A stretch of 61,939 bases of DNA, counting the filler, from Jimgerdemannia flammicorona (taxonomy: Eukaryota): assembly GCA_003990765.1 (NCBI GenBank). It is 2 parts of 2 records of this genome, joined end to end, with 100 filler letters (N's around TTAATTAATTAA, not from the genome) between each part and the next. Parts side by side here need not be neighbours in the genome. Positions count along the whole stretch, not along the records: positions 1 to 30,938 come from RBNJ01000418.1; 1 more part is not named here. The stretch is one strand, 5' to 3'. The notes beneath the pieces are model-generated. The model made no database searches. It saw only the letters and a list, made by a program, of their open reading frames with translations, and had not been told where the DNA came from. A program made the position numbers and the translations under genes. The number at the start of each line of letters is the position of its first letter. The stretch's first letter is position 1. Below are positions 13,650-61,939 of the stretch, in pieces.

Positions 13650-14072
13650 TAGTACTCTTAAATAAATCAAATCAATTCAAATCAAATTGAATTGAGAGTT
13701 ATTCAAATTGAGTCAAATTGGGGGTTTTTCAATTTGAATAAAGTTTGAATCAAATTGAATTCAAATCAAATTGAGAGTTCAATTCAAATCCTATTTTTCA
13801 AAATATAATAACTTGACAAAATATGTCCAAATTTAATGATATTTAGCTTATTAGATTTCTCTTATATAGAGAAATCTAAAAAGCTAAAGACTATTAAATT
13901 TGGACATATTTTCATCAAGTTATTATATTTCAAAAAATAGAGTTTAAATTGAATCTTGAATCAAATTGAACCTTTGATTTAATTTAAATCAAATTGAATT
14001 AGACCTTTAATTTGATTAAATTAAATTAAATTTGAATCAAATTTGATTTGATTTGATTTATTGGGAGTACTA
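13650..14072. mobile_element. Foldback/MITE (whole-element palindrome), MULE-related
   Basis: Termini TAGTACTCT.../...GGGAGTACTA; near-perfect inverted symmetry centred near 13865 (TTCTCTTATATAGAGAA). The flanks CTAGTTTT and TTAGTTTC differ only by C/T transitions, consistent with a decayed 8-bp TSD. Confidence 0.8.
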
Positions 14073-14249
14073 TTAGTTTCATTACTTTAAATTGTTTTAA
14101 TCTAAGATTTATTCAATCTAGATACTAGATTATTTATATAAGTTTATTAGCTATATAGTGGCTAAGTTATGACTTTTTTTCTTATAATGAGTTATTTTTA
14201 CAATATATAGATTCTTATAATTACTAGTTTTTTATATATTATATAGAAT

Positions 14250-15241
14250 TAATACTCCCAAATAAATTGAATTGAGTTCAAATTGAATTGGGGGTCCAAT
14301 TCAAAATATTTGAATCAAATTGAGATCTTATTCAATTCAAAATTAGAAGTCAAAATTTAAAATATAATAACTTGATAAAAATATGTTTAAATTTGATATA
14401 TTTTAGCTTGTTGGATTCACCTTGATGAGGCAAATCCAGTATAATAAAGATCATTAGATTTGAACATGTTTTCATCATGTTATTGTATTTTAAATATTTA
14501 GGTTCAAAATTGAGATCTGATTTAATTTGAAATTGAAAATCAAAATTTAGAATATAATAACTTGATGAAAACATGTCCACATTTGATGTATTTTAGCTTA
14601 TTAGATTCACTTTAATAAGACAAATCCAGTGCAATAAATATCATTAAATTTGGACACATTTTCATCAGGTTATTAAATTTTAAAAATTTAGGTTTATGAA
14701 TTGAGGTCTGATTTGAAGTCAAACTTTGAAATATAATAACTTGATAAAAACATATCAAAATTTGATGTATTTTAGCTTTTTGGATTCACCTTAATAAGGC
14801 ATATCCAGTAAAACAAAGATCATTAAATTTGGACATATTTTTGTCATGATATTGAATTTCAAATATTTAGGTTCATGAATTGAGATCTGATTCAAAGTCA
14901 AACTTTGAAATACATACAATAATATGATGAAAACATATCCAAATTTGATGTATTTTAGCTTGTTATATTCACCTTGATAAAATGAATCCAGTTCAATAAA
15001 GATCATTAAATTTGGACATGTTTTTGTCATATTATTTAATTTCAAATATTTAGGTTTGTAAATTGAGATCTGATTTAAAGTCAAACTTTGAAATATAACA
15101 ACTTGACAAAACCATATCTAAATTGGATATATTTTCATTAAGTTATTGAATTTTAAAAAATTTAGGTTCAAATTGAAATTTAAATTGAATTGGACCTCAA
15201 TTCAAATTGATTCAAATCAAGTTGGGCCTTAATTTAAATTG
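14250..15241. repeat. Foldback-type element with ~4.5 tandem ~180-190-bp self-complementary units
   Basis: Starts TAATACTCCCAAATAAATTGAATT. The unit AAGTCAAACTTTGAAATATAATAACTTG recurs near 14347, 14537, 14716, 14895 and 15078, and each unit is an imperfect hairpin homologous to the core of the 13650 element. Confidence 0.8.
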
Positions 15242-21131: not shown

Positions 21132-22414
21132 TAGTGCTCCTAATAAGTTAATTTAATCCAGATTGGATTCAGATTGATTCAGATTGATGGAATTCGAATC
21201 CTATCCAGATGGATTCAAATCAACCATTGTTTTGATTTCCAAATTAGATAATTAAATGTTTACATTAATAACTTGATAAATAATTATCCAAATTTAATGA
21301 TCTTGGTGTTATTTAAAAGCCCTCCATATGATCTATCTAATGATACTAAGAATATTGAAATCAGATTATGCATTACTGAGTTATGAAGAATAACATCTGA
21401 ATTACTGATTTTGAAAATTATTCAATTTGCCAATTTTGGAGATATCTTATAGCACCATCATTTTTTTCCCTTAACCCAATTTTTTTCATGACTGGATTTT
21501 TTTGATAGGATGATTTATGATTAATATTATCTAATGTAGATCATAGCTATTTTTGATAAAATATATATATATATATATATATCTTTTTTTTTTTTATCTT
21601 ACTCATCAAACTTGAATAAAATGGAGCAAATTTCTGACTCCAACATTTCCATTACCTCTGTCATTATTTTCTCTGCCATTTCACTCATCACCACTATCTC
21701 TGCTACTACTATTCCTGTTACTGCTATTCCTACTATCATTCATCAAAAAAGATATATTATTATTGATGAAGATAGTGATGATAATTATAATAAAGATAAT
21801 GACTTCTCTGTTACTACCATACTTATATCTACTGATCTTGCTGGTCCTGCTATTGTTATAGAACCCACTGACTCCATCAACCTCATCAACCTTGCTGACC
21901 TTAATAATCTTACTGATCTTACTGACCTCACTAATCTTACTGATCTTACTAATCTCACTAATCTCACTGATGCTACCACCTCTGTAAGTCTCAGTTATAG
22001 TGATGATCAGCTCAAGTTCTTTTAAGTAGAAAGGTCATTCACTATATCTATAGAGGAATTCGAAATAATATAGCTAGAAATTAACAATATTTGGATATAG
22101 TTTGGATAAACAAAGAAGTTTGTAAAAGATAAATAGATCAAGAACTATGATTGCTGGTTCAAGAAGCATAATTTCTCATCAACTAAAGACTGAAACACAC
22201 CAGTAGAAAAGAGAAGAAAGACTAGTATGCAGCTTTCAGATCTTTGTAAAGCCAGAATTATTATAATCTATAAGGATGACAAAGTAACTATTCACAAAAC
22301 TAAGAATAGCCCAGACTATTCTCATAATCTCAATACTAGTGATATTTGAAAGATGCCAAGCATAGTCAGAAATTTTGTCAAAATAGAGGTTAAAAAGAGA
22401 TACTGTATATCAGT
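21132..22414 (+). mobile_element. MULE/Mutator-like DNA transposon, left TIR plus 5' part of transposase (pseudogene)
   Basis: TIR TAGTGCTCCTAATAAG... (~300 bp, shared with the MITE at 16045). ORF remnant YDCWFKKH...KRRKT...LCKARIII...PDYSH resembles the FAR1/WRKY-GCM-type DNA-binding region of MULE transposases. Interrupted by Gypsy A. Confidence 0.65.
21864..21972 (+). repeat. 9-bp coding minisatellite (TDL/TNL)n inside MULE ORF
   Basis: About 11 degenerate ACTGATCTT-type units. Confidence 0.8.
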
Positions 22415-24487
22415 TGTAAGCGCATAACCTCCAAGCCATCGAAATTACACATTACCCTCTGAACAAGCCACTGAAATCACATATGACCTCTGAACAAATC
22501 TGGAAATCACCTGCTTGATCACGAAGCTGAGTCAAACTGAAGTTATAGTGCACAAAGCTGAGTCAATACGAAGTCACAGAATACAAGATTCACACAAACA
22601 GAATCTTACCAATCAGGACCAAATATATATATACTGAGCACTGAGATGCATCAAATCAGAGAACCAAAACAAACAATAACCACAACTCCCAAACACATAA
22701 ACATGACCACCGAGATCTATATCTGTATCTGCACTGACATTTGGAATGCTATTGTCAACCGAGCTACACCCCCTCTACCCCTCATAAATATCCATAGCCT
22801 AGTACCCCTCTACTTCGTGGAAGCCTGATGGAATACTCTGAACATGCTTAGCGAGGCCCACTGAATCGGACAAATCTCAAGCTACTACCAGATTGGCTGC
22901 CTCCTGGAAGACATAATTGAATACCACCATGATATAGACATTATCCAGATGTCTCAACACCAGAAGCTCATCACCTGCAAACATTGAGAACTTTTCTACA
23001 AGTATAGCACCATTATTCCCCACCTCCAAGTTACCATAGCCAAAATGATTGCTACCCTATCTTATAGTCAAATTGATGATATGATACAAGAACTCAACCA
23101 CAAGTACCTCGAGTACATCGAAACCACAGACAGAACCTTCCCACACCCCAATGATCATATCCTGCAAATGCCCCAAGTTGGATATGCCATAAAGGACATC
23201 TATGATATAATCCACTTCGATGAAGACAAAGTAGAAGATAATGATCTCTCTGACACTGACATGATCTCTAGCCAAGGATCTCTGCTAACTCTAATCACAC
23301 TGCCAACCTTGCCGATGAACTTACAATAATTTATAACAGCTTATGAGACTTATTGGAATAATGACCACTGGTATGAATACTAACCTACATTCACCCCTGA
23401 TTACTTCAACTACAATGAAGAGACTGGAGAACACAACCTGTACCTCCAGACAACCCTCGAGATTGAACCAACCACTCCACCACCTAAGTATGAGTGACAT
23501 GAACTATAGCCACCAGCTTACTACAACCCTGCAACTCATAGTGCTGTAATCTATAGAAGGTATGCAGATAGCGAAACCAATGAAAGCGAAGATGATACAC
23601 TCCTCCTTCACCCACCAACACCTTATCCAGTATATGAGACTGATGATGCCATCTTGTGGGATAGAGACGAAGTTCCAATATATTATTATCTCAGCAAACA
23701 AGGAGAAGTAATCTGCGAACCACTCTTCCTAGACAACTACATCATCAGAGATGATGTAATCAATAGTGATGTCATCAAGGACTATCCAGATAGTGCCTAA
23801 ACCTATAAATAGTCTAGCAGTCATAGTATAGTTAGATTAGCCTTGTAAGACGTGACTGTGAACTGACTCAGCAGTCAGACAATCTCTTGACATATCAGAT
23901 CACACTTGTACTATGTAACTGCATTCCGACTCAGCAAGGCACTTAGTGCTATATCCATATCTAGCATAGTCCAGATAGCCTCTTACTAGTATAAATACCC
24001 CCTCCCCCAGACCTCAGAATCTCAGACTTGAATACTTGAACAATCTGAACACAACTCCTGAGCACTTTCCCACAATATCCCTTTACACAACTACTCCTAG
24101 TATAGCAATATCATGAATAGCCAATAAGTCTATTTAATAACCCACAAACCACTCTTAAGTAAATCTGCTCCCTGTTAGATCCTACTCCTAACTCTGTCAC
24201 GAAATTTCCTAATTGGGTATTGTCTGTAGCAATACACCAATTCAACTAAGCTGGTCTTAGTTTCTTAAATCTCCTGAAATACAGAAAATCCTGAACATTC
24301 AGAACTAATCCGAAAAAGGACTTTGGTTGAGATGTCAACTCTATCTTGAAAGCAATAAGTGTAGAGGATATACTCCATATGAAATTGATCTTGACCATAA
24401 GAAAACAGTCTTTCAGAACATCCAGAACTTCTAGAAAAACCCTTCCAGAACTACGTAACAGTTACCCTAAAAAGCAACCCTCTTACA
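22415..24487 (+). repeat. 5' LTR of Gypsy A (2073 bp)
   Basis: TGTAAG...CTTACA ends. Both ends are confirmed by the second copy (56538-58054, minus strand). Followed by the PBS; TATA box near 23990. Confidence 0.88.
22703..23800 (+). pseudogene. Accessory ORF inside the U3 region of the Gypsy A LTR (~365 codons, one frameshift near 23280)
   Basis: TATATATA at ~22624, then AAACATG at 22703. ORFs 22646..22828 and 23045..23329 share a frame and are joined by three TGA (ex-CGA) stops. After the frameshift comes an acidic Tyr/Pro-rich tail with PPPKY and PPAY, ending at TAA 23798-23800. Confidence 0.7.
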
Positions 24488-24490
24488 ACT

Positions 24491-24502
24491 TGGTAGCAGC
24501 AG
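24491..24502 (+). promoter_or_regulatory. Primer-binding site, initiator tRNA-Met type
   Basis: TGGTAGCAGC 3 nt after the LTR end; the same PBS type occurs at 46258. Confidence 0.75.
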
Positions 24503-26434
24503 TTTACAATCCAATTCTGCTTCAAGATGCTTCCTCACCCTGCTACAAACCCTTCTGAGAATTCCTACAAGTTGGTATAAAGCTCAACCTCTGAACTGGA
24601 ATTTATCCTGAACTATCTGACAATCTGGAGAGAATTGAACCTGACGTATAAGGACAATTTGACCTCCACACCTACAACAAGTGGGACAAACTTCATTCAA
24701 AAAAAGAAGTACTCTGATTAAATCAGCAAATAGGTGAAACCCTATTCACCAAACTCCTTGCACTACACTCAGCAAGTCAAGATGAAGAAGGTCTTATTGA
24801 AGCCTTCTTTACTCTTCTCAATAAGAGTTTTGTCAGCTCCACAAATCTGAGCAACCTAAGCAGTCTTTCTAGCCTTAGTCTCTCACAAAGTCCAAGCCTC
24901 TATAGCAAAGTGGCTCAACTCTACTGACTTCACTGCACCAGGACCAAGACCACATTATACTACCAATTCCAAAACAGCAAGGCCTGCCATATCCTTAAAG
25001 AAGAAGCAAGAGAAACCCTTCATCAACTACCTGACCCCAAACCTGAAGCAGGCCCTGCTATGGCCCTATCTGAATCTGAAACCAATACTGAACCTGAACT
25101 TGACTTTGAATTAAGTCTATCTAAAATCAGATATACAACTAATTCCATCTACTTTGACACCAAGCAAACCCAATTACATGAGGACCAAACCAAAGAAGAG
25201 GAGGAGTATCTCAGTAAATTCAATCCTAGATACACTACTGAAGGAGAAGCACCTCCATCAGGACAGAATACACCTATACAGCAACAAACAGCTATCTATC
25301 AAGCCCTCACTCCAGACTCACAACTACTACTCCAGCAACTTACACAGACCCAAAAAACCCCATCACACTCTACACCAGTACCTCAAGTAGTACCAGTAAC
25401 ACCACTACCAGCAGTCTAACTGCCTTCAGTAAACAATATGGCAAACCAACAGATTCTAGACCTCACAGCCCAGGTAGCCATAATGGCAGCAACCATTACT
25501 GCCTTAGCTGAACAGACCCAATCTATCAAAAGTCTGAGCCTACCTACCTTCAATGGTACTATATAAGAAGTCCAAAGCTTCATTAGTATAGTTGATACCA
25601 ACTTTGAAGCCAATCAATGGACCAATGAGTGAGTTGCTGACTGTGTTTTGATAAACAATCAAGACCATACTCTGGAACAACTCTTTGCTACCACTACAGC
25701 CTATGTCCACCAAGTTGTTACATTCTTCTGAGGACCTGCCGAAGAATGGTGGCAAACCCTTCCTGAAAAACCCCTCACATGGGATACCCGACCTGCAGTA
25801 GTTGCTCAGAATACAGCAAATAATGCCCCAGGATATGGAGCCCATCCTGCAGCCCCTGGACTCAAATAACTCATAATTGCTCAATACTACAGTGAAACCA
25901 TGATTGCTGAATCTTGAGTAAAACTCTGTAACCTCAAATTTGATGTACATGGCAAAGAAGAATTTGAAACCTTCTGTACAAAACTCAAGTCACTCCTGAA
26001 CACTGTGGGCCTAGGATTCATTGCCAATGATGAAGTATGAAATGGTATAAGAGCAGACCATTTATTCGATGCACTGCCTGAATGGCTTACTAGAAAAATC
26101 CAAGAACAAGGCTACCCAGTTGGTTGTGATCACCAACAATGATGTCTGGCAAGAATCAAGACTATGGTCAAGCAAATCCTAACAGCTGGACCAATTCTGC
26201 CCCAAAGACAATTCAACAATAAGGAAAAGACTTGGACTAAGAAAGAAGAACCCAAGCATGAAGTATTCCGAGCTCCCTCCACATCCACCTCTTAGACACC
26301 TAGAAATCATGAACCTACCCAGCCAAGCATCTTAAAAAAACTCACTGAAGGCGAAAGGAATGAACTTCAAAGAAGTGGAGTATGCTTCTATTACCACTCT
26401 GCACCACCTCAACAACCTGACCACCAGAATACTA

Positions 26435-26841
26435 GACTTTGTCAAATTGAGACAAACTGCTAAGGCCCCAACTAAAGAAAGTCAAAAAGCAGCTGAATAT
26501 GACCTATATGTAGCTGAAGAAGCTACAGTTTCCAACCAAGAAGTCAAACAAGTCTACATAGGAATCAGCATCCAAATCCCTAAAGGATATGTTGGAAGAA
26601 TATGCTGTTGCAGCAGCCTAGCATTGAAAGGACTCTCAGTAGAAGGAGGAGTTATCAACGAAGATTATACAGGTGAAATCATTGTCCTCATTTGAAACCA
26701 CAGTTGGACACCCTTCAAGATCCCTATAGGTTTCTGTATTGCTCAGATTCTATTCGAAAAAATCAAGTCAACCCTGACAGTCAAGGAAGTCTCTAAACTA
26801 CTGCCCACCATCCGAGGATCCAAAGGATTTGGCTCATCAAA
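26435..26841 (+). pseudogene. dut: dUTPase domain of Gypsy A, between nucleocapsid and protease
   Basis: All five trimeric dUTPase motifs in order: AAEYDLY, GRICCCSSLA (ex-RSGLA), GGVINEDYTGEI, IAQIL, RGSKGFGSS. Confidence 0.9.
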
Positions 26842-29800
26842 CAAGGCCCCAGCCCAACCTACCAGGAGTAAAGAAGAACAATTCTATAAGAAGATTGAAG
26901 ACAGATATATACCAAGTGGCCAATGCCCTCATGGCATTGGAATGTACTCTTCCTGAATAATTGATGATTGCTTCTCTTGTGTCAATGAACTGGCTCAAAG
27001 AAGAACCAACAGAAGGAAAGGTCCTACAACTGAAATCACTACCATTGGATCAGACAAACTACTTACACTTAAAGCCTTTGTCAACCAAGCACCTGTCAAG
27101 ATTATGATAGACAGTAGTACCTCAGACAACTTCATCAATGAAGAGACAGCCAACAGACTCAAGGTCTTCACCTCTCCAGTATAGCAAACTCAAGCAGTTG
27201 CTACAGTTGATGGAACCTCACATATTATTAGTAAAGAAGTCCACAATCTACTCTTCCAAATTGGTGACTACTGAGTACATGTTACCCTCAAATCATACCA
27301 CTTCCTGACAATAAAATTATCCTTGGGACTCTATGGTTAAAATAAGAGAACCCCATGATCGATTGGGTAAACCATTCTCTGACCATCAAGAAAGGATGCC
27401 ACAACTTCAAACTACAAGATGAAAAGGACCCACTTAATTCTAGTGACCCTGGACTAAAGATCACCCACATCAACAAGATACAACTTAAGAAATTGGCCAA
27501 GAAATGCCCTCTCTTCGCCATCTCCATCCATCTATCCAAAGGAGAACCCAAGAACTCTGAAGAAGATTTTTCCAAAGTTGACAGCCATGTCAGACCACTA
27601 CTCCAGAAATTTTGAGATATATTCCCAAAGAAGCTCCTGAAAGGCCTACCTCCTAAATGAGTGGTAGACTATGCCATCAAGACTATCTCAGATGCCAAAC
27701 CAATCTTCAAGTCAATCTACCACATATCTCCAAGAGAAATCAATGTACTCAAGAAAGAAATTGACAAACTCCTAGAATAAGGATTCATCAGACCCAGCAT
27801 ATCACCTTATGGTGCATCAGTCCTATTTGTTGTTAAGAAAGGAGGAGACCTGCGAATGTGCATTGACTACCGTGATCTCAATGAACAGACCATCAAGAAC
27901 TGTTGCCCACTACCGAGGATCAATGAAATATTTGATAGACTTACCAACTTGCAATTCATGAGCTCCTTTGATCTGCAAAATGGTTATTAGCAAATTTGCT
28001 ATGAAAGAAGAAGACATCTATAAGACAGCTTTCCAAACTCACTATGGACACTTTGAGTTCCTGGTTATGCCCTTTGGCTTAACTAATGCTCTAGCAACCT
28101 TCCAGACACTGATGAATATCATTCTACATCCATATCTAGACAAATTCATTATTGTCTATATTGATGACATTCTAGTCTTCAGCAAAACCCTGGAGGAATA
28201 TCTCAAACACCTTGAACTAGTACTACTGAAACTCCAAGAAAACTGACTCTTTGCAAAACTCAGCAAGTGCAAATTTCTCCTGAAAGAAATTCAATTTCTT
28301 GGACACATTGTCACTCCAAATAGAATTAAAGTAGACCCCAGCAAAATCTCTGCAATCAAAGATTGGCCCAGACCCAAGAAGCTGAAAGACCTCCAGTTAT
28401 TCCTGGAATTAGCAAACTATTACAGGCAATTTGTTGCCAACTTTGCTAAAATCGCTACTACTCTCACCCAAATGACCAAGTATAGCAAGAAAGAAGAACA
28501 GCCCTGGACCACAAAACAAGAGAAAGACTTCAACAATCTTGTAAATTGGAGACCTGAACAAGATACAGCCTTTCAAGCATTAAAAGATGCCCTGATAACC
28601 ACTTCAGTACTTCAAGTGGCAAACCCTGCCCTACCATATGAAGTTACTACTGATACCTCTGATCTAGCTCTTGGAGCAGTACTCATGCAAGAAGGACACC
28701 CTGTGGCCTATCACTCCCGCAAGTTCAATGATGCCGAAATTAACTATACAACCCATGAGAAGGAAATGCTAGCCATCATAGATACTCTGATCAAATGGTG
28801 ACCCTACCTAGAAGGAGCACACTTCACCATATTGACTGACCACAAATCATTAGTCAATATCAAGACACAGGCTACCCTTTCTCGAAAGCAAGCCAGATGG
28901 ATGAAAGTCCTTACCAACTTTGACTATGAAATCCAGTATCACTCTGGCAAGAAAAATATTATTGCCAATGCAATCTCCAGACCACTCATTGAAGAAGTTA
29001 TCCAAACTCTCACCTTAGTTACTAATACTATTATGGAGCAAATTATTACAGCATGTACCAATGATAAGGAAGCTCAAGCACTGTGAGAAATCCTGAATAG
29101 TAATGATGCCGACAAGCATACACAGTATCATCAATACCAACTGAAGGACAATGCTATCTACTATAAAGACAGACTGTATGTCCCAAACAACCAAGACCTC
29201 CAAAGGACTATCCTATTCAAATGTCATGATGTACCCACAGCTGAACATTTAGGATTCGACAAATGCTATGAAGTTATCTCCCAAAACTTCTATTGGCCCC
29301 GCATGGCAGACCAGCTCAAAACCTACATTACTTCCTGTAATGCCTGCTAATGAAACAAGTCCTCAACACTAGCAAAACCCGGCTTACTTCACCCTATCCC
29401 AGTACCATCTGTGAATTGGGAACAAATCTCTATAGACTTCATTGTACAACTACCCTAAACCAAGAACGGGAAAGATGCAATTGTTGTCTTTGTGGATTAC
29501 CTCAGCAAACAAGCCTACTTTGTGCCTACTATCACTACTGCAACAGCACCAGACATAGCCACACTCTTATTTGACAACATCTTCTGCTATCATAGTCTTC
29601 CTAAGATCATTGTTAGTGACTGAGATTCGAAATTCACCAGTCATTTTTGAAAAGCCCTCTATGCACACCTTGGAACAAAACTTGTACTATACACAGCCTT
29701 TCATCCAGAAACTGATGGCCAAACTGAAAGGATGAACCAAACTCTGGAACAAATGCTAAGGAACTATGTTTTCTACAGACAAGATGACTGACATGAACAC

Positions 29801-30759
29801 CTCACTACAGTCGAGTTTGTCTATAACAATAGCAAGCAAGTCTCTCTCAGAATGATCCCATTCTTCACCAATACTGAACAAAACCCAAACACCCCTTTGA
29901 CACTTATCCAATCCACTGAAGAACACTCCATAGTCGAAGCTGTTGAAGAATTCTTACTCCAAATATACAATCTAAGCCAGATTGCTATCGAGAATTTATC
30001 ACGAGCTCAAGAACAACAGTTACAGTATATTAACCAACACTACCAAGAAGAAACCTTTGATATTAGAGAAAAAGTTCTACTGGACATCAGAGGATACCGA
30101 GTTGACAACCTCAAGTACAGACCATCTACAAAGCTGAACAGTAAGTTCATTGGACTATTTGAAGTCATCACATAAGTCTCTCCAACCTCCTACAAATTAG
30201 CACTACCAGATACTATTAAGATTCACCCAGTCTTCAATGTCTAACATCTCAAGTGATATAATGAGAATGATGATGAACTATTCCCTAACCAAACCATGAA
30301 ACCACCTGCACCTATCATTATTAATGACCAAGAAGAGTACAAAGTTGAACAAATCCTCAATAAACATAGCCACAAGAACTACCCAGAGTACCTTGTCAAA
30401 TAGAAAGATTACCCAATCCATGATGCCACATGAGAACTCAAGACCAATCTCCAGAATACTACTGACCTAGTTCAGGAATATGATTCCTTGAACAACTAAA
30501 ACCAAATACTCTGCACCTATCTATACATATTATATATTATCCTCCTGAACACTATAATTATCAAAAAAATCAAGAACTCAGCAAAACAAGACAAGAATAC
30601 TGACTCTCTGGAAAAAATAGCAAAACTGAAAGCCAGTCTATTCTCCCCATACCACTGGTAGGAAATGAGGTATAGATATTTAAGAAGATTCCATAGAGAA
30701 AATTCTCCAGCAGTGAATGACATCAGAATCACTTCTGGTACACAGCATTGAACACATGA

Positions 30760-30761
<2 letters not shown>

Positions 30762-30820
<59 letters not shown>

Positions 30821-30938
30821 GGACTCATGTCCCGCGGATTTTTATTGGAAGGGAACCTAGACTATATAGGCCAAAACCCTCCCCCACCACCCACCAAGCA
30901 CTGACCCCCCATTAACCTAGTCTAGCTATTGTCCAGCA
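30762..30938 (-). mobile_element. 3' end and poly(A) tail of a LINE inserted into Gypsy A
   Basis: Poly-T at 30762-30817; on the minus strand it is preceded by AATAAA and G-rich sequence; runs into the gap. Confidence 0.65.
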
Positions 30939-31038
30939 NNNNNNNNNNNNNNNNNNNNNNNNNNNNNNNNNNNNNNNNNNNNTTAATTAATTAANNNNNN
31001 NNNNNNNNNNNNNNNNNNNNNNNNNNNNNNNNNNNNNN
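30939..31038. other. Artificial assembly spacer (N44-TTAATTAATTAA-N44)
   Basis: A 12-mer giving stops in all six frames sits at 30983-30994, centred in exactly 100 nt. Confidence 0.95.
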
Positions 31039-31064
31039 AAAAAAAAAAAAAAAAAAAAAAAAAA

Positions 31065-34000
31065 GGTACCTGGTAGGCCTCTCCCCCTCCTCAAGCCCCT
31101 GCCATGGCAGCCTGACAGCCAGACCCTGCATATGAGTCTCCTCCTCTTCCCTCAACACCTGTTGTTGTTCCACTATCTCCAATTTCGCCCTCTCTACCCT
31201 CCAATCCTCCACCCCAACAATAGTGAGCAAATCCACCCACTCCATTTGTAGTCTTCTCAGCCTGCTGGTAGCACACCTTGTGCGCCTCCTCCTCTGCCTC
31301 CCAGCCTCACTACCAGCCCCTCCCCAATAAACCCTCACAGCCTCTTTCAATCTCATCCAGAGGACAGTCACAGGCAGACCATTGCCCCACCAGATCAAAA
31401 CTTTTGCTTGAATGTCCTCCACCCACAATTTCCACAACCCCTTCTCAGCCAGCAGGGAGGAGTTAAGGCGCCAATGTCCAGGTCCATCTCCACTCCCCCC
31501 AAACTGCCCCTGCCCCAACAGTCCCCAGTGATCAGACCATGGGCACCACTCCACTCCCAATGTCTTCCAAACATCCGAACCCCAGCACTCTGCTGTCAGA
31601 ATCCAGTCAATCCTCATGCCCAAGCCATTCACCCAATGTGTGTAGACCCTGTCATCACCCCACCTTATTCTGCCCATATCTCTCAAGGAACTCAATGTCT
31701 CCACCTCCTCCCAAACATCCAGACCTCCACTTCTACCCCTGACATTCCTCCCTCCATCAGTTCTATCCAGACACTGATCCCGAACCATATTGAAGTCCCC
31801 ACCAAGAACATCGACCCCTTCCTCCAAGAGAATACCCTCCTCCAGCAGCCCCCTAATCCACACAGTCCTCTCACCCCTAACGGCAGGGCAGTAGCAAGAG
31901 CCCACCTTCACCGATTCCCACCCTGGTCGATGCCAATCTCTCCAGACCAAGCAATTGCCCCAGCTCCTGATACCCCCCAAGTCTCCTCTGCCCTTCCTCA
32001 CCAGAATCGCTACTTTTCCAAACCAAGCAGCAGCCCCACCCCATTCTCTAGTCCACTCTACCTGCTTGTCCTCATCCTCACACTGAACATCCTATAGTAA
32101 AAAGAGATCAGCCTCCAATCCCTTGAGCCAAGTAAAAATGTTCTTATGGCGCCCAGAGCCCCTTAACCCATTCACATTCAAGGAGAAAATGTTGGTTGTA
32201 CTGTTCATTAAGAATACTGATATATCGTGGTCCCATTCTCTACAAGTCCACATTCTGCTCCTCCTGCACTAAGTCCAAGTCATGTTCAGCAGCTAGTTCC
32301 CTCTCCCCAGCTTCCCATGCTGCCAACTCTCCAAGAAGTTCTACCATTGCCCCATCTTCATGCTCCTCAAAGTCCTCTCGATACTCCAGACAGGCCTCCT
32401 GCCAGAGCCTCAGACCATGACGTTCTGCCCAACAGTACATCGCCCATTCAACAGCAACCACCCCCAACTCTGTCTTCCTAACCTCATCAACCTCATAACC
32501 CTTCTCCTCCAGGAAAATTGCCAGAATTTCCAACTTCAGTGCCTCCAACATTCCATCACTGCGCAGAATATGTGCCCAATGCTCCTCAGGCATTGCCCAC
32601 AGGTTCACTTCCCCCAAAGCCTCTGCTGCAAGATTATCCATCACCTTGCACATCCACAACAAGTTTCCCACCTCTTTCCCTCCTGGAGTCCCCAGCCACC
32701 CTGCATCCAACATCATGGTATCCGCTCCTATACTGGCAGCCTCATCCCACTCCTCCTCAGAGACATCCACCAGCTCCTCCTCACCAACTGCCACCACCTG
32801 ACCCCCTTGCGCCACATCAGGAACCCCAAAGTGCACCTGCTGGGCCCCCTGCATCCATGTATCCTCCATCATCCCTCTCTTCCCCACCGGGCCCCTCCTG
32901 ATAAGTGGGGGGGGGGTGGCATCCAACTCCAGCTCCCACACTTTGAAGGTTCCATCAGCAAATGGGTCCTTGTCCAGCATCTTCCCAGCCTCTGCCTCCT
33001 TCACCTCTCCCTCCTCTCCTCCTTTATCTGCCCAGACACTGGCCTTTATGCCTCCAGACTCCCCAGCTCCAACTGACTTCTTCTCCACCCCTCCTGTCAT
33101 ACTGGCCAATAGCTCCCTCTGCCTCTGGCATCCCTGGGCCCACTCCCACTGCTTCCTGTACATATGGATACGCTTTCCACCCACAACCTCCAGATGTGTC
33201 AACTCCTCATATAGTTTCCATGCCTTCACCCTCCTCTCCACAGCACCACCCAACTCCTCCAGTGCCTCTAACAAGTCCTCCTCCTCCTCTTCACTCCCTT
33301 TCACCTTCAACACCTTGCAGATAACAGCCCCCCACATCAGCACGAAGGCCAGTCACTCATCTTCCCTGTGGCCTCCTTGCCCACTAGCCGAATCCTGACA
33401 TCGACATCACCTGTCCTGATAGTGGTCCTCTCCCACACCTGAAAGCCTATGTCCACCACATCACCATACTCTACCATCACCTCCTCCACTCTCTTCCTAG
33501 TCTCCTCCTTAGTCACTGTGGGCATCCCCCTCACTAGAAGCTGCACCACTCTGGGGTCCCACCTCAAGCACCACACCATGGGTACCACCATCTCTCCAAC
33601 CATAACTCCAGCCTTCAGGGCCTCATCCAGTGGGCCCACTTCCTCAAAACCCACCTCAACCCCCTCCAAGCCCTTCAAGAACTTCACCAAGGCCGCCCCC
33701 ACCACCTGCTTCGAAATCAGCCCCAGAACCATCCTCGCCATCACCGCCAAGCCCCGGAAGCACAAGGTGACCACAAACTCTGAAATCAACTTCTTGAGCA
33801 ATGGGGCCACCGCCAGCCCCATTACACCATCTGCCAGGTCCCTCTTCTGCATTGGGAACCCCTGCCCCCCCTGGCCATCAGCCATCACATCTCTTTTTTT
33901 CGCCTGATTCACCATCACGCCACCATCAGCAGTCCTGCCACTACCCCCAGCAGCAGCTCCACTTCCACCACCTCTCCCTGGCGAAGGCCCAGCTCCCATG

Positions 34001-34340
34001 GCAGCACCATCCTTCTGCTTCCCCTTCCCTCCTGCCTGACTACCGCAGGATCCTGCTGGCCAACCCCCAGTCCTCAGTATGTCCACAAAGCTCCTACCCT
34101 GCAGCCTTCCAGCCCCCCCACCAGTGCCACTTCCACTCCCCAAGCTGTCCTGCCCACCTGAGCCACCAAAGACCCCATCCCCAGTCCATACCCTCTCCTG
34201 ACATGCTGCCAGTTGAAGGCCCCAGGTATGCCTGACCTAGTACGCATATCGGCTTGCTTGCTGGTTGACATTTTCTTAATAGCTTTCTCCAATAAACGAC
34301 TTGAAAGTTTGTTGTAAAGTGTGTGTAATGTAAATTGTAG
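31065..34340 (-). mobile_element. L1/Tx1-like LINE, 5' half (5'UTR, ORF1, APE endonuclease of ORF2)
   Basis: ORF1 (33337..34143 and 32240..33343; RSFVDIL, EVGF). ORF2 begins NVNGLRG...ADLFLL and contains GSCYCP, LGGDFN, YTHW, RIDWIL, PWSDH, GPGHWRLNSSLL, EGERPTRY. The 5' end matches 50594 onward. Broken by a plus-strand poly(A) at 31039-31064. Confidence 0.92.
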
Positions 34341-35539
34341 TGCATGGGTTCCTTCTTTTGAAACTATGAATCCAAGGAATTCAAGTTTCTGCTTCCCAAA
34401 GTAGCATTTCTTTGCATTCAATCTCAGGTGGTTTTTGCAGGTGAGCTTGAAGAATTCCTTTAGGTAGTGCAGTTGTTCTTCGAAATTTGCTAAATAGATA
34501 TTGGAATCGTCCATGTATACAATCAGACAGTGGTGGATCAAGGGGGCATAGACAGAATTCATCATCCTCTGAAAGGTGGGGGGTGAATTGCAGAGTCCAA
34601 AGGGCATTCAGAGGTATTCAAACAGTTTTCCTAAGGCAAGGAAGGCTGTTTTTTGAATATCTTTGGGGCCCATGGAGATCTTGTGGAACCCTGCAAAAAG
34701 GTCCATACTGCTGAAGTATCTGGCATCCTATAACTGATCCAAAAGGTCATCGATTCTGGGCAAAGGATAGGCATCCTTTTCAGTGACTGAGTTAAGTTTT
34801 CTATAATCCACACAGAGTCTCCATCCTCCTTTCTTTGGTACAATAAGTATGGGGCTGGCCCAGGGGCTAGTAGAGGGTCAGATGACTCTATTGTCTAAGA
34901 GTTCTTGAATGTGCTCCTTTTCAAACATTTTCAGGTAATGGGGTATTCTATAAGGTTTCTGCCAGATGGGTTTTGCATTTTCTGTATTTATGCTGTGATG
35001 ATATGATGGGTTGTATAGTAGGTTGCCATAATCAGTAGTCAAGATATTTTGATATTTATTGAGAAGTTCTACTAGTTATTGCTGTTGCTGAGGTGTCAAT
35101 TCTTCTCCAATGTTGGTGGAAAGCTTCACTGTCTCCTGGGTCGCAGAGGGGCCTTTTCTTTCTTCTGGGACCTTTTGCCATTTCCCAATAGGTTTAGTTC
35201 ATAAACTTCCCTATGAGTTTAGTTGAGAAAAGGCACCAGATGTCCTATGATGGTTCCTTTCAGCAAGATGATGGTCTCCCAACTTTGGTTGGTTGCTTGG
35301 GAGTGTGCTGGGTTCATCTTGTCAGGGAATGTGTGTCCCTCTATGTCCAGGTGTGGGATATCTTCCTTGGGTTCAAAGAAAAGGTTTCTGGGGTCAGGTG
35401 GTGCAAAGATTTCGAAGGTGGTTTGTTCTCTGGGCTCCAGGATGAGATTCTTGTGCAGTCTGACTGGTTGCCAGTATACTTGCTGGGGAACATTCCTCTT
35501 GAGGGGGTTGACTTGAAGGAGATGCACCTCCTTCCTGTC

Positions 35540-56537: not shown

Positions 56538-59500
56538 TGTAAGAGGGTTGCTTTTTAGGGTAACCATTATATAGTTCTGAAAGGGTTTTCTGGAAGTTCT
56601 GGATATTCTGGAAGACTATTTTCTTATGGTCAAGATCAATTTTGTATAGAGTATGTCCTCTACTTATTGATTTCAAGATCAGGTTGATGTCTCAACCAAA
56701 GTCCTTTTTCAGACTAGTTCTGGATGTTCAGGATTTTTCATATTTCAGGAAGTTCAAGAAACTAAGACCAGCTTAGTTGAATCAGCATATTACTGCAGAT
56801 GATATCCAATTAGAAAATTTCATGATGGGGTTAGGAATGAGATCTAATGGGGAGTAGATTTACTTAAAAGTGGTTTGTGGATTATTAAATAGGTTTATTT
56901 GCTATTTATAATATTGCTATACTAGGAGTAGTTGTGTAAAGAGATATTGTGAGAAAGTATTCAGGAGTGTTCTTGTATGTTCAAGTCTTGTTTGAGTCTC
57001 TGTATCTGTTCAAGTCTGAGATTCTGAGGTCTGAGAGAGGAGGTATTTATACTAGTGAGGGGCTATCTGAGCTATGCTAGATATGGATGTAGCACTTAGT
57101 GCCTTGCTGAGTTGGAATGTAGTCACATAGTACAAGTGTGATCTGATATATTAAGAGATCATCTGACTGCTGAGTCAGTTCACAGCTACATCATATAAGG
57201 CTAATCTAACTATACTATGACTGCTAAACTATTTATAGATCTAGATGCTGTCTGGATAGTCTTTGATGACATCACTATTGATGACATTATTGCTAGCAAA
57301 GTCTGAGCAGTTTTCTGACTTCTGATATCATCAGTTTCAAGATGTTGTCACTTCTATCTCTTGCAAGATTAAGGCTATCCTTGGTGGTAGTAGTTGTACA
57401 AGGATAACAGGTCTTGGTTCTCTTTTTTTTTAGCCTGCTAGTGCATTTGTGAGAACTGGCCATCCTTGTCTAGAGCAAGAGCTCCCAATGTCATGGCTGG
57501 AGGTTTGAATCTCTCAGAAATGATATTTTCTATAATCTAAGGCAATTTCTAGTAGTAATATCTGTCATGTGGATGGCTTGAGATTGGTTTTGATAATATC
57601 AGCTTTCTTGAGTTCAGATGAAGCATCCATCACTCTCCAACAGAGGTGACACAGATAGAGTAAATGGAGTTGTTCAAATGTATTTTACTTCTGCTAAGTA
57701 ATAAGGTCTTGTATAGTTGTGGTGTATCTTGGTCTTGAGTTTGATAAGTGTAGTTCATGAACTCTTGATGGATGAGATAGGATCTTTCTTGTCTCAGTTT
57801 GAGTTTGGTACTTTCAGTTTCCTTTTGTAATAATACAGTATACTAAACTAGTTATAGAGGTTCAGAGTCAGTCTTATAGTTATAGTACTTCTTCTGGTAT
57901 TTTTGTGTCTTGGCAGTAGGTTCTCATATTTGCTGGTATATTTTGTATAACCAGATGATCTCTTCAGTAACTTGTTTTATAGTCTCGCATATGGTTTCCA
58001 ATTGGTTCTAAGAATAATATGCAATTTTGGTGGCTTGGAGGTTGTATGCTTACAACTCTCCCCTTCTTAGCTTTTGACATTCTCGTCAGGGCCTTCTAAT
58101 TTTGTTCTAGTGTTGTTGTACCATTTGGATGATTTTTGTAGCTATGTTTGTTGAGGATTTGTTCAACTTCATACTCTTCTTGGTCATTGATAATGACAGG
58201 TACAGATGGTTCTATGGTTCAGTTCAGAAATGTGTCTCAGACCTTCTGGAGTAGTGGTCTGACATGGCTGTCAACTTTGGAAAAGTCTTCCTCAGTATTC
58301 TTGGGTTCTCCTTTAGATGGACAGATGGAGATAGCAAAGAGAGGGCATTTCTTAGCCAATTTCTTGAGCTGTAGCTTGTTGATGTAGGTGATCTTTGGTC
58401 CAGAATCACTAGAGCTGAGTGGGTCCTTTTTACCTTGCAGTTTGAAGTTGTGACATCCTTTCTTGATGGTTAGAGAATGGTTTACCCAATTAATCATGGG
58501 TTCTCTTGTTTCAACCATGGAGTCCCAAGGATGATTTCATTGTTAGGGAGTGGTACAATCTGGAGGGTAATATATACTTAGTAGTCACCAATTTGGAAGG
58601 GTAGGTTGTGGACTTTCTTGCTAATGATATATAAGGTTCTATCAGCTGTGACAACTGCTTGAGTTTGTTGTACCAGAGATGTGAAGACCTTGAGTCTGTT
58701 GGCTGTTTCTTCATTGATGAAGTTATCTGAGGTACTGCTGTCTATCATAATCTTGACAGGTGCTCAGTTGATAAAAGCTTGAAGTGTAAGTAGTTTGTCT
58801 GATCCAATAGTAGTGATTTCAGTTGTAGAAGCTTTCCTTCTGTTGGTTCTTCTTTGAGCCAGTTCATTGACACAAGAGAAGCAATCATCAATCATTTGGA
58901 AAGAGTACATTCCAATACTATGGGGGTATTGGCCACTTGGTATATATCCATCTTTAATTTTCTTATAGAATTGTTCTTCTTTATTTATGATAGGTTGGGC
59001 TGGGGCCTTGTTTGATGAGCCAAATCCTTTGGATCCTCAGATGGTGGGCAGTAGTTTAGGGACTTCCTTGACTGTCAAAGTTGACTTGACTTTCTCAAAT
59101 AGGATCTGGGTGATGCAGAAACCAATAAGGATCTTGAAGGGTATCCAACTATGGTTTCAGATGAGTACAATAATTTCACCTGTGTAATTCTTATCAATGA
59201 CTCCTCCTTCTACTGAGAGTCTTTTCAATGCTAGGCTGCCATGACAACATATCCTTCTGACATATCCTTCAGAGATTTGGATACTGATTCCTGTATAGAC
59301 TTGCTTAACTTCTCAATTGGAAACTATAGCTTCTTCAGCTACATACAGGTCATATCCAGCTGCTTTTGACTTCCTTTGATTGGGGCCTTAGCAGTTTGTC
59401 TTAACTTGATAAAGTCCAGTATTCTGGTGGTCAGGTTATTGAGGTGGTGCAGAGTAGTAACAGTTGCTCATGTTGTTGTTCAGGGTTTTCAGTTGGGGCA

Positions 59501-61919
59501 GGCACTGGCCATATGTCCTATCTTTTAGCAATAGAAGCATGCTCCACTTCTTCAAAGTTCATTCCTTTCTCTTTCGGTGAGTTTCTTAAAGGTACTTGGC
59601 TAAGTGGGTTTATGATTTCTAGGTGTCTATGAGATGGATATGGAGGGAGCTTGGGATGCTTTATGCTTGGGTTCTTCTTTCTTGGTCCAAGTCTTTTTCT
59701 TGTTGTTGAATTGTCTTTAGGGCAGAATTGGTCCAGCTGTTAGGATTCACTTAACCATAGTCTTGATTCTTGCCAGGCACTATTATTGGTAATTACAACC
59801 AACTAGGTAGCCTTGTTCTCAGATTTTTCTAGTAAGCCATTCAGGTAGGGCATCAAATAAATAGTCTGCTCTTATACCATTTTGTACTTCATCATTGGCA
59901 ATATATCCTAGACCAACAGTGATCAGGAGTAACTCGAGTTTTGTACAGAAGGTTTTAAATTCTTTCTTACCATATATATTGAATTTGAGGTTGTGGAGTT
60001 TTACTTGAGATTCAGCAATTATGGTTTTGCTATAGTATTGAGCAATCATGAGTTGTTTGAGTCCAGGGGCTGCAGGATGGGCTCTATATTCTGGGGCATT
60101 GTTTGCTGTATTTTGAGCAACTACTGCAGGTTGAGTGTCCTATGTGAGGGGTTTTCAGAAAGGGTTCACCACTATTCTTTGGCAGGTCCTCAGAAGAATA
60201 TATGTAACAACTTGGCAGACATATGCTATAGTAGTAACAAAGAGTTGTTCCAGAGTGTGGTCTTGATTATTTATCAGAAGGTGGTCAGCAACTCACTCAT
60301 TGGTCTATTGATTGGCTTCAAAGTTGGTGTCAACTATACTAATGAAGCTTTGGACTTCTTGTGCAGTACCATTGAAGGTAGGTAGGCTCAGTTTTTTGGT
60401 AGGTCAGATCTGTTTGACTAAGGCAGTAATGGTTGCTGCCATTATTGCTACCTGGGCTGTGAGGTCTAGAATCTGTTGGTTCACTATGTTGTTTACTGGA
60501 GACAGTTGGACTGCTAGTAGTGGTGTTACTGGTACTACTTGAGGTACTGGTGCAGAGTATGAGAGTGTTCTTTGGGTCTGTGTAAGTTGCTGGAGTAATA
60601 GTTGTGGGTCTGGAGTAAGGGCTCAATAGATAGCTATTTGTTGCTGTATAGATGTGTTCTGGCCTGATGGAGGTGCATCTCCTTCAGTGGTGTATCTGGG
60701 GTCAAATTCACTGAGATACTCCTCCTCTTCTTCAATTTGGTCTCCATGTAATTGGGTTTGCTTAGCATTAAAGTAGACAGAATCAGTTGTATATCTGATT
60801 TCAGATAGACTTAATTCAAGGTCAAGTTCTGGTTTAGTATTGGTTTCAGATTCAGATAGAGCTGTAGCAGAGCCTGCTTCTGGTTTGGGATCAGGTAGTT
60901 GATAGAGGGTTTCCCTTACTTCTTTTTTAAGAATATGGCAGGCCTTGCTGTTCTGGAATCAGTAGTATAACATAGTCTTGGTCCTGGTATAGTGAAAGTC
61001 AGTAGAGTTGAGCTACTTGGCTACAGAGGCTTGGGCTTTGTGAGAGACTAAGGCTAGAAAGACTACTGCTGGTTGTCCTAGGTCACTCAGATTTGTGGAG
61101 CTGACAAAACTCTTGTTGAGAAGAGTAAAGAAGACTTCTATAAGACCTTCTTCATCTTGACTTGCTGAGTGTAGAGCAAGGAGTTCAGTGAATAGGGTTT
61201 TGCCTATTTGCTGATTTAACTGGAGTATATATTTCTTTCTTTGAATGAAGTTTGTCCCACTTGTTGCAGGTGTGGAGGTCAAATTGTCCTTGTACATCAG
61301 GTTCAATTCTCTCCAGATTATCAGATAGTTCAGGAAAAATTCCAGTTCAGAGATTGGACTTTATACCAACTTGTAGGAATTCTCAGAGGGGTTTGTAGCT
61401 GGGTAAGGAAGTGTCTTGAAGCAGAATTGGATTGTAAACTGCTGCTACTAAGTTGTAAGAGAGTTGCTTTTTAGGGTAACTGTTACGTAGTTCTGAAAGG
61501 GTTTTCTGGAAGTTCTGGATATTCTGGAAGACTGTTTTCTTATGGTCAAGATCAATTTTATATAGAGTACATCCTCTATGCTTATTGATTTCAAGATTGG
61601 GTTGACATCTTAACCAAAGTCCTTTTTCAGACTAGTTCTGGATGTTCAGAATTTTCTGTATTTCAGGAAGTTCAAGAAACTAAGACCAGCTTAGTTGAAT
61701 TAGTGTATCACTGCGGACAATACCCAATTAGGAAATTTCATAATAGAGTTAGGAGTGGGACTTAACAGAGAGCAGATTTACTTAAGAGTGATTTGTGGAT
61801 TATTAAATAGGTTTATTTGCTATTCATGATATTACTATATTAGGAGTAGTTGTGTGAAGGGATATTGTGGGGAAGTGTTCAGAAGTGTTCTTGTGTATTC
61901 AAGTCTTGTTTGAGTCTCT
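56538..61919 (-). mobile_element. Second, internally deleted copy of Gypsy A (5' LTR from 61454 outward, gag-dUTPase-PR, deletion of RT-RH-IN, PPT, 3' LTR 56538-58054)
   Basis: Reverse complement of 24100-27620. PBS at 61441-61450 (TGG mutated to TAG); dUTPase at ~59015-59420; PPT AAGAAGGGGAGAGT directly before TGTAAGC at 58054; LTR ends CTCTTACA at 56538. Confidence 0.92.
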
Positions 61920-61939
61920 TTTTTTTTTTTTTTTTTTTT

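Follow-up and report, generated by a model that had tools for sequence, protein, structure and literature searches.

Little is understood about the additional open reading frames (aORFs) of LTR retrotransposons. In the excerpts available from the accounts that describe them, they include the antisense ORFs of the plant elements Grande, RIRE2 and Retand and env-like ORFs (PMC7264820), the ORF3s of bdelloid rotifer elements (PMC5408684), and, in a drawing of fungal chromoviruses, an 'add. ORF' whose function is unknown (PMC2864245); most of them sit between pol and the 3' LTR (PMC7264820, PMC5408684, PMC2864245). The interior of an LTR is an unusual place for a protein gene, and a narrow phrase search of the literature found no LTR retrotransposon with such an LTR-internal ORF, its matches being mouse ERVs and MMTV. 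Further accessory genes of the LTR region are nef of HIV and the bel/tas region of foamy viruses. According to partial texts of the relevant papers, the 3' LTR of MMTV contains the open reading frame sag (PMC2119085, PMC2191119), whose product is reported to be a type II membrane protein (PMC2191119). Partial texts likewise report that the LTRs of Cassandra TRIM elements carry a 5S rDNA-like sequence (bioRxiv 10.1101/2023.07.14.548913, PMC10886601), and that dUTPase-carrying chromoviruses occur in the fungi Tuber (Tmt1), Phanerochaete and Postia (PosPlaTy3) (PMC2864245, PMC6431247).

We analyzed a window of 61,939 nucleotides, filler included (the whole stretch of DNA under study), from Jimgerdemannia flammicorona, in which the LTR of one element, element A, encloses a decayed sense-strand ORF. 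We regard this ORF as probably a pseudogenised aORF belonging to the LTR of a dUTPase-carrying fungal chromovirus (Ty3/gypsy). Like the known aORFs, it is an extra frame beside gag-pol and specific to its family; such frames often have no homologues. Unlike them, it sits inside the LTR, and would thus occur twice per element, once at either end, and persist in the solo LTRs that recombination leaves. With MMTV sag it shares the condition of a sense-strand protein gene lodged in a retroelement LTR, the placement in U3 being presumptive here. The sag gene is accessory to replication, and by analogy an accessory role is a candidate for the window ORF, which differs from sag in its fungal host, in its acidic, Tyr/Pro-rich C-terminus, and in having no Pfam similarity at E <= 10. 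Sequence searches of Pfam and the PDB gave no homology to Sag or Nef, and the models of the ORF product are too poor for a comparison of folds. The Cassandra LTRs are comparable in holding a foreign gene-like module with its own promoter (a candidate one in element A), but what they hold is a pol III RNA gene rather than a protein gene, and Cassandra elements are non-autonomous and belong to plants. A comparable backbone is that of the dUTPase chromoviruses, with which element A shares dUTPase, protease, reverse transcriptase, RNase H, integrase and chromodomain; as in PosPlaTy3-3, its dUTPase precedes the protease, near the Pol N-terminus (PMC2864245, PMC6431247, in the portions available). 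The same portions mention no LTR-borne ORF for these chromoviruses, in contrast to element A (PMC2864245, PMC6431247).

Limits, class and variants of the element

The LTR of element A and the signals that it contains or adjoins are as follows.

22415..24487, + strand: 5' LTR of element A, 2,073 bp, TG...CA, with ends matching those of LTR B and a PBS after it
22415..22466, + strand: LTR 5' terminus common to variant B (pairwise alignment)
22432..22497, + strand: tandem repeat with a 32-nt unit and 2.1 copies, upstream LTR portion (Tandem Repeats Finder)
22528..22565, + strand: two TGAGTCA motifs, 31 nt apart, 5' of the first TATA run
22624..22633, + strand: TATATATATA run, candidate ORF promoter by motif only, ~70 nt 5' of the ATG
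22703..23800, + strand: decayed additional ORF, 365 codons and a stop, with 7 internal nonsense codons
23749..24487, + strand: LTR 3' part common to variant B, containing the final 16 codons of the ORF and its stop
23804..23811, + strand: TATAAATA just 3' of the ORF stop, kept in B at 57230-57237
23864..23870, + strand: TGACTCA, kept in B
23990..23997, + strand: TATAAATA, candidate element promoter, kept in B at 57044-57051
24491..24502, + strand: PBS TGGTAGCAGCAG, 3' of LTR A

LTR B, the PPT and the PBS together set the limits of LTR A, in agreement with the first-pass annotation, which had drawn an LTR of ~2.07 kb from a second copy, a PBS and a PPT. The LTR opens with TG at 22415 and closes with CA at 24487, and in blastn alignments its two ends correspond to those of the other copy (22412-22454 to 58057-58015, 84%; 23751-24488 to 57290-56537, 84.4%). 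Contigs from four public runs gave zero cover at 22000-22320, and their cover began in the bin holding the start of the LTR. The ORF-bearing LTR itself was covered by contigs of all four runs compared.

The internal region that follows carries these domains.

24503..30520, + strand: internal region of element A (Pfam and ORF list); every domain carries stops
~26459-26839, + strand: dUTPase (Pfam)
~27056-27331, + strand: aspartic protease (Pfam)
~28001-28312, + strand: reverse transcriptase, RVT_1 (Pfam, 9.5e-21)
~28547-28921, + strand: RNase H, RT_RNaseH (Pfam, 1e-32)
~29189-29692, + strand: integrase (Pfam; Integrase_H2C2 4e-17, rve 1.9e-05)
~30071-30259, + strand: SH3_Tf2-1 (Pfam, 5.6e-15)
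30338-30484, + strand: chromodomain, Chromo (Pfam, 1.5e-07)

The gypsy order of reverse transcriptase, RNase H and integrase with a C-terminal chromodomain places element A among the Ty3/gypsy chromoviruses, and the LTR features are those of Ty3/gypsy elements as well (TG...CA ends and a PBS in element A, a PPT in element B). The rve match, at 25.3 bits, lies under the curated cut-off of 32.6. The best named matches of pol are 31-49% identical and scattered over plants, amphibians and fungi, and so point to no taxon. That the host is a fungus is borne out by ribosomal protein P0, whose top scores are against chains in five PDB sequence sets of fungal origin. Element A is present without its 3' end and 3' LTR, its sequence passing into poly-T and then into a run of N near 30991.

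A second element, element B, lies on the opposite strand and has an LTR that does not hold the ORF.

56538..58054, - strand: element B 3' LTR of 1,517 bp, lacking the ORF cassette
57293..58000, - strand: unrelated block of ~0.71 kb in LTR B, standing in place of the TATA run and the ORF body
58056..58073, - strand: PPT aaagctaagaaggggagag of element B, directly 5' of its 3' LTR
61453..61939, - strand: 5' LTR of element B, 3' part only, truncated at the window end

The leader and gag of element B, from 61452 downward, match element A at 88%. Variant B has the segment corresponding to 22470-23748 swapped but retains the two LTR ends, both TATAAATA boxes and the ORF's final 16 codons. The ~0.71-kb block that stands there contains no frame longer than 70 aa and no Pfam family. 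The junction recurs in two other public runs. Since variant B holds other sequence at the site of the ORF, the difference between the two LTRs is a replacement rather than a simple insertion. Neither target-site duplications (TSDs) nor terminal repeats occur at the A/B junctions; an insertion with its own TSD in this copy alone had been named beforehand as an outcome that would refute the proposal. The sister variant without the cassette shows that LTRs of this family can do without the ORF in cis.

The reading frame, its relatives and its decay

The ORF starts at the ATG of AAACATG (22703) and runs as one continuous frame, as had been proposed (~365 codons with this start). The single frameshift proposed with it is absent, as both relatives described below align in one frame and as single tblastn segments. 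Internal stops fall at codons 42, 54, 95 (TGA), 209, 227 (TAA), 265 (TGA) and 269 (TAG), that is, at positions 22826, 22862, 22985, 23327, 23381, 23495 and 23507. The frame has 8 stops including the terminal one, the other two sense frames have 21 and 40, and dinucleotide shuffles (n = 5000) have a mean of 25.5 ± 4.6, with a minimum of 11; it is open far beyond chance expectation. The G fraction at codon positions 1, 2 and 3 (0.25, 0.10 and 0.12) points to a periodic composition. Further copies in the window were not detected by tblastn, except for a remnant of 15-19 residues in LTR B.

Only two relatives were found among 1.84 billion representatives and 5.8 billion clusters, both of them environmental proteins that are open and partial, each from a contig of ~1 kb. 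P0003 (128 aa, 76% identical) opens with the same MTTEIY as the ORF, and P0002 (247 aa, 60% identical) extends to the same C-terminus. Three other matches (P0004-P0006) were rejected as spurious, being repeat or low-complexity proteins aligned over ~35-65 residues. Scans of metagenome_contigs and viral_contigs yielded no DNA locus for either relative; one stretch of viral_contigs was positive by tblastn but gave no locus.

At all seven window stops the relatives have Arg (3) or Gln (4), as expected from the CGA/CAA/CAG-to-stop pattern that the first-pass annotation had read from the codons themselves. As the relatives remain open at these positions, the window copy is a pseudogene inactivated by C-to-T changes. 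The ancestor had an open frame of 365 codons, and relatives, or other copies, still have it open. Judged by its sequence, the ORF is a real, formerly open protein-coding sequence embedded in a Ty3/gypsy LTR, represented by two partial open relatives and a broken window copy, where aORFs are expected to be open in several copies of a family. Among the mismatches to P0003, 25/31 are explicable as a single C-to-T or G-to-A change in the window copy. For P0002, 65/96 mismatches are left unexplained by such decay, which marks it as a truly diverged relative; its alignment contains two gaps of 2 residues each. As a side observation, the C-to-T decay of the ORF agrees with CpG depletion in the transposon-rich parts of the window.

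Selection on the ORF is only suggested by these comparisons, and they bear directly on an alternative that we consider unlikely on balance, namely that the ORF is a passive passenger, a captured host or foreign gene or a de novo frame that spread with an LTR subfamily to no benefit, its intact relatives being merely younger copies. A neutral simulation at 60% identity is compatible with it (3.5-5.6 stops expected, 4 seen), and the probability of finding no stop in P0002 under neutrality is 0.04-0.13, assuming that half of the divergence fell on the P0002 lineage. The paucity of relatives, just two, also suits a passenger, as does an LTR in variant B that manages without the ORF, and LTR retrotransposons with transduced ORFs have been described (PMC7264820, in the part available). 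Against a passenger stand the difficulty of obtaining a frame of 365 codons by chance, the lack of any host or other homologue among the 1.84 billion representatives or in Pfam, and the state of P0002, which stays open, with both gaps preserving the frame, despite more divergence than decay of the window copy accounts for. Identity to P0002 is, moreover, unevenly spread over the protein (permutation test on the variance across windows of 12 residues, P = 0.008). If non-functional, the locus would be a clean case of an orphan ORF hitch-hiking in U3.

Position and possible expression of the frame in the LTR

The ORF falls wholly within the LTR and lies 5' of the two conserved TATAAATA boxes, and so presumably in U3. 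The downstream box at 23990-23997 is the second TATA (~23990) that had been noted where the element promoter is expected. The upstream TATA noted at ~22624 is present at 22624-22633, but the T at 22626 is a C in most related contigs, so that part of the run is a C-to-T change in this copy. Motifs of this kind call for caution: TATAWAWR occurs 123 times in the window, where TATA-like motifs are common, and TGASTCA shows no enrichment (10 found, 11.9 expected). The TGAGTCA pair upstream of the first run may be AP-1/Gcn4-like.

The same signals can be arranged otherwise. If the TATA at ~22624 were the element promoter, the ORF would lie in R rather than U3, as a leader cistron 5' of gag, with the downstream TATAAATA boxes either connected with poly(A) or incidental. 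The short stretch before the first TATA (22415-22620) does contain tandem repeats, which are frequent in U3 enhancers. This arrangement would, however, need an R region of about 1.4 kb, a length that would be very unusual. It also fits poorly with variant B, which has neither the upstream TATA nor the repeats and retains the downstream TATAAATA boxes and TGACTCA, so that the downstream part seems sufficient for an LTR of this family; the recurrence of the variant B junction in two more runs adds to the difficulty. We therefore hold a location in R to be decidedly improbable.

With the ORF placed in U3, the upstream repeats, the TATA run and the ORF may form a cassette gained or lost as one unit, because exactly that block is replaced in variant B. 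The likeliest route of expression would be a transcript from the LTR-internal TATA (~22624-22633) through the ORF to the LTR's own poly(A) site. With both start and poly(A) site inside the LTR, any such LTR, solo LTRs included, could express the ORF, and a gene held at both element ends and in solo LTRs could be expressed from many genomic sites, independently of gag-pol. The likeliest role would be that of a dispensable trans-acting accessory factor. An acidic activator or adaptor is the guess we favour, with a position like that of sag in MMTV or of the transactivator in foamy viruses. The full form of this proposal is that the LTR is a self-contained gene cassette with an internal promoter, an orphan ORF and its own poly(A) site, whose trans-acting acidic accessory protein would benefit the family, as a transactivator or anti-silencing factor for example. 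We put this forward tentatively, as a possible but rather unlikely reading. If true, it would describe an independent fungal counterpart of MMTV sag and foamy-virus tas. Any function of the ORF would mean that accessory genes like those of complex retroviruses arose in fungal retrotransposons too, and would offer a handle on how elements cope with host methylation and silencing.

The encoded protein

The predicted product of the ORF is a strongly acidic orphan protein. Its C-terminal 165 residues comprise 31 D+E, 7 K+R, 19 Y and 18 P, which bears out the acidic, Tyr/Pro-rich C-terminal half described earlier. A helical N-terminal half had been described as well; the N-half is predicted to be helical at low confidence, by AlphaFold2 models with pLDDT of 31.5 (on a 3-row alignment) and 51.3 (on P0003 alone), values too low for a fold search and too low to sustain that description. 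For the Tyr/Pro-rich, acidic C-half no confident fold was predicted. Pfam returned no family for P0001 at E <= 10, nor for P0002 and P0003 at E <= 0.01, and the best match in a PDB sequence search had an E of 0.5. In the ESM Atlas, P0002 (own model pLDDT 0.39) had no usable match, and P0003 gave sub-threshold leads only. No fold, family or motif from Pfam, the PDB, the ESM Atlas or AlphaFold2 supports a specific biochemical role. With relatives open from the same Met and a family that cannot be detected, the earlier wording of an uncharacterised retrotransposon product is fair, and we extend it to an uncharacterised retrotransposon additional ORF.

Two PPxY motifs occur in the C-terminal half of the window copy.

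23480..23491, + strand: PPKY motif (window translation)
23510..23521, + strand: PPAY motif (window translation)

These motifs had led to the idea that the protein is an adaptor for Rsp5/NEDD4-type ubiquitin ligases. Both are present as described, but neither is kept in P0002, the only intact relative covering this region, where PPKY is replaced by LSEY and PPAY by PLAY; the conserved HPPTPYP is not a PPxY. The ligase-adaptor idea thus loses its only basis, and PPxY-dependent action of this kind appears very improbable.

Periodic codon composition commonly leaves an antisense frame open as well, and although one antisense frame has just 9 stops in 366 codons, it is scarcely credible as the true feature, given that the three antisense translations match no Pfam family, that both database relatives match the sense frame, and that every sense stop maps to Arg or Gln.

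A decayed reading frame inside a chromoviral LTR

The 5' LTR of element A, a plus-strand Ty3/gypsy element, holds a decayed ORF that was very probably once a genuine protein-coding gene of this LTR family.

Features of LTR A and of LTR B, the 3' LTR of the related minus-strand element B
22415-24487, plus strand: 5' LTR of element A (LTR A), 2,073 bp, TG start, CA end
22624-22633, plus strand: TATA run, about 70 nt upstream of ATG 22703; motif only
22703-23800, plus strand: decayed ORF, ATG context AAACATGA; 365 codons, then TAA at 23798-23800
24491-24502, plus strand: primer-binding site TGGTAGCAGCAG, TGGTAGC type, three bases past the end of LTR A
58054-56538, minus strand: LTR B, 1,517 bp

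The ORF carries seven internal stops and no frameshifts. Counting the terminal stop it has eight, against 25.5 ± 4.6 (minimum 11) for the frame in 5000 dinucleotide-preserving shuffles; the remaining two sense frames over the same stretch have 21 and 40, and G content is periodic by codon position (0.25, 0.10, 0.12). The first-pass annotation, which had described a frame of about 365 codons with one frameshift, was essentially right: the length stands, and the frameshift is not there. Coding on the antisense strand is very unlikely. The one antisense frame with 9 stops translates into a hydrophobic sequence that matched no family and no database entry, and we take it for the mirror image that a periodic coding frame usually leaves on the other strand. 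Position 22703 is favoured as the start because the in-frame ATG at 22646 is missing from one related contig (a loose end) and unused in P0003, an environmental database protein matching the ORF.

The LTR limits proposed earlier are borne out by a second copy, the polypurine tract and the primer-binding site. Self-comparison of the window matches 22412-22454 to minus-strand 58057-58015 and 23751-24488 to minus-strand 57290-56537 (84%), and the limits are right because the LTR B copy starts (TGTAAGC) directly, one base, past the polypurine tract aaagctaagaaggggagag, which itself lies after the end of a pol frame. Independent support comes from contigs of four public runs (two from soil metagenomes, two from coded organisms) mapped to the window at a likeness of at least 80%: in 4/4 runs the cover is zero over 22000-22320 and begins in the bin containing 22415. 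Upstream of LTR A, a frame at 21860-21980 consists of ctt act gat ctt act ... repeats and translates into a repetitive NLTDLT peptide with no Pfam family.

Relatives, decay and constraint

A search of 5.8 billion protein clusters and 1.84 billion representatives (the latter without a word index) returned only two real relatives of the ORF protein; P0004-P0006 were discarded as repeat proteins matched over short stretches only. P0003, a 128-aa 'hypothetical protein' from a 1,180-bp JGI contig, is 76% identical to ORF residues 1-128 and has the same N-terminus, MTTEIY. The second environmental protein, P0002 (247 aa, from a 998-bp ENA contig), is 60% identical and 79% similar to residues 115-364 and has the same C-terminus, ...YPDS. 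P0003 has Arg at three TGA stops of the window copy (codons 42, 54 and 95) and P0002 has Gln at the other four; all seven stops therefore arose by C-to-T change from CGA, CAA or CAG codons, as the first reading had supposed. With P0003, 25/31 mismatches come down to one C-to-T or G-to-A transition on the window side. P0002, by its sequence, is a genuinely diverged relative with its frame intact: only 31/96 of its mismatches are single changes of this kind and so fit decay of the window copy, and 40/96 require a transversion or at least two changes.

Simulating neutral change on the codons of the window copy gave an expectation of 3.5-5.6 stops at 60% identity; four were seen, all in the window copy, and the chance that P0002 stays open was 0.04-0.13, assuming that half of the divergence lies on its lineage. 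Against P0002 the ORF shows two gaps, of 2 residues each, and neither shifts the frame. Identity between the two proteins varies unevenly over their length (permutation P = 0.008), with nearly invariant blocks such as FTPDYFNYNExTGEHNLYLQTT. Taken together, the simulation, the frame-keeping gaps and the uneven identity are suggestive of constraint on the ORF, short of proof.

The protein as a whole is strongly acidic, and its C-terminal half is acidic and rich in Tyr and Pro, as anticipated, with a net charge of about -24 over residues 201-365 and -18 over residues 1-200; that of P0002 is -36. The protein and its relatives gave no Pfam family, no PDB sequence match and no Atlas lead. Poor AlphaFold2 models (pLDDT 31.5 and 51.3) predict helix across most of the first ~170 residues, then mostly coil. 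The two PPxY motifs previously pointed out are present in the window copy; a role as ubiquitin-ligase adaptor through them is unlikely and has no conserved basis, because they read LSEY and PLAY in P0002.

A variant LTR and the expression signals

LTRs A and B have in common their first ~50 nt and last ~740 nt. The common 3' part holds the last 16 codons of the ORF and its stop (encoding DDVINSDVIKDYPDSA in A and NNVINSDVIKDYPDSI in B), and both TATAAATA boxes and one TGACTCA are present in either LTR. Between the common ends, LTR A has 1.28 kb (22470-23748) holding the tandem repeats, the TATA run and the ORF body; in LTR B their place is taken by 0.71 kb of unrelated sequence, in which every frame is 70 aa or shorter. 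Simple insertion of the ORF cassette was ruled out in favour of replacement, because neither a target-site duplication nor a terminal repeat was found at the A/B junctions. LTR B is most likely derived from an LTR that bore the ORF, since the C-terminal codons common to both LTRs are also kept in P0002. B-type junction sequence was found as loose ends at 23746 in two public sequencing runs, X1 and X2; both LTR variants therefore exist beyond the window locus, and the ORF segment is not private to one copy, a case the first-pass annotation had allowed for. The same finding shows the cassette to be dispensable for an LTR of this family.

Ahead of the TATA run, the LTR holds a tandem repeat with a 32-nt unit and a pair of TGAGTCA motifs spaced 31 nt apart; all of these are motifs only. 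The window contains 123 TATAWAWR matches and no enrichment of TGASTCA, and the T at 22626 in the TATA run is C in most related contigs. The strongest indirect argument that the ORF may be a separate unit is that repeats, TATA run and ORF body are swapped as a whole in LTR B, whose downstream TATAAATA boxes are retained. That the ORF is a functional LTR gene with expression of its own seems doubtful. An accessory-gene reading is plausible, and we lean, with some reserve, towards the ORF being a dispensable, cassette-like accessory frame of the LTR family as the best explanation of the whole.

Known systems and genomic surroundings

LTR retrotransposons are well known to carry additional ORFs (aORFs), which in the portions of the literature available lie mostly between pol and the 3' LTR (PMC7264820, PMC5408684), whereas that of element A lies within the LTR. 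LTRs are known to hold a gene in MMTV, sag (PMC2119085, PMC2191119), and a 5S-like, gene-like module in Cassandra (10.1101/2023.07.14.548913, PMC10886601). A narrow phrase search, which leaves absence from print unproven, found no LTR retrotransposon with an ORF within its LTR; its only two matches concerned mouse ERVs and MMTV. Because aORFs and LTR-borne genes are known and this placement was not found for an LTR retrotransposon, we file the ORF as an LTR-placed aORF of a fungal chromovirus, encoding an orphan protein.

Element A is a chromovirus as judged from its sequence, with the Pfam domain order dUTPase, aspartic protease, RT, RNase H, integrase, SH3_Tf2-1 and chromodomain; dUTPase-carrying fungal chromoviruses appear in print, in the parts available, for Phanerochaete, Postia and Tuber (Tmt1) (PMC2864245, PMC6431247). 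Its dUTPase is placed upstream of the protease, and dUTPase domains occur in two different gypsy elements of the window (26459-26839, E 4.8e-31; 35219-36118, minus strand, E 1.8e-25; Pfam). Element A has lost its 3' end and 3' LTR at a poly-T run followed by an N gap (near 30991-31040). These belong to 30760-34240, which continues into a C-rich (55% GC), minus-strand LINE-like element with long open frames and a Pfam match to Exo_endo_phos that falls short of the cut-off (E 8.3e-05); element A is truncated on its 3' side by this LINE-like element. Element B (56538-61939, minus strand), with just ~3.4 kb separating its LTRs and a pol shortened at the chromodomain end, is an internally deleted, probably non-autonomous relative of element A.

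The retroelement nest occupies the window from ~13 kb onward, and transitions dominate between copies. CpG observed/expected is 1.01 in the gene-bearing left 12 kb versus 0.13-0.31 in the retroelement stretches tested (22415-34000); CpG loss and transitions fit cytosine methylation and deamination directed at transposons, rather than RIP with its CpA bias. The left 12 kb holds host genes with introns, which we take, by translation likeness, to be dihydroxyacetone-kinase-like (3226-5156), ribosomal protein P0 (9228-10055) and NPL4-like (11256-12441). For P0, chains in five PDB sequence sets, presumably fungal ribosomes, score ahead of all others. Tandem repeats of ~180-190 nt, in 4-5 copies with 66-85% identity, make up an AT-rich (25% GC) array at 13818-15135, and an RVT_1-bearing element is present in two ~80% identical plus-strand copies, 11.57 kb apart, at 42808-43819 and 54253-55386.
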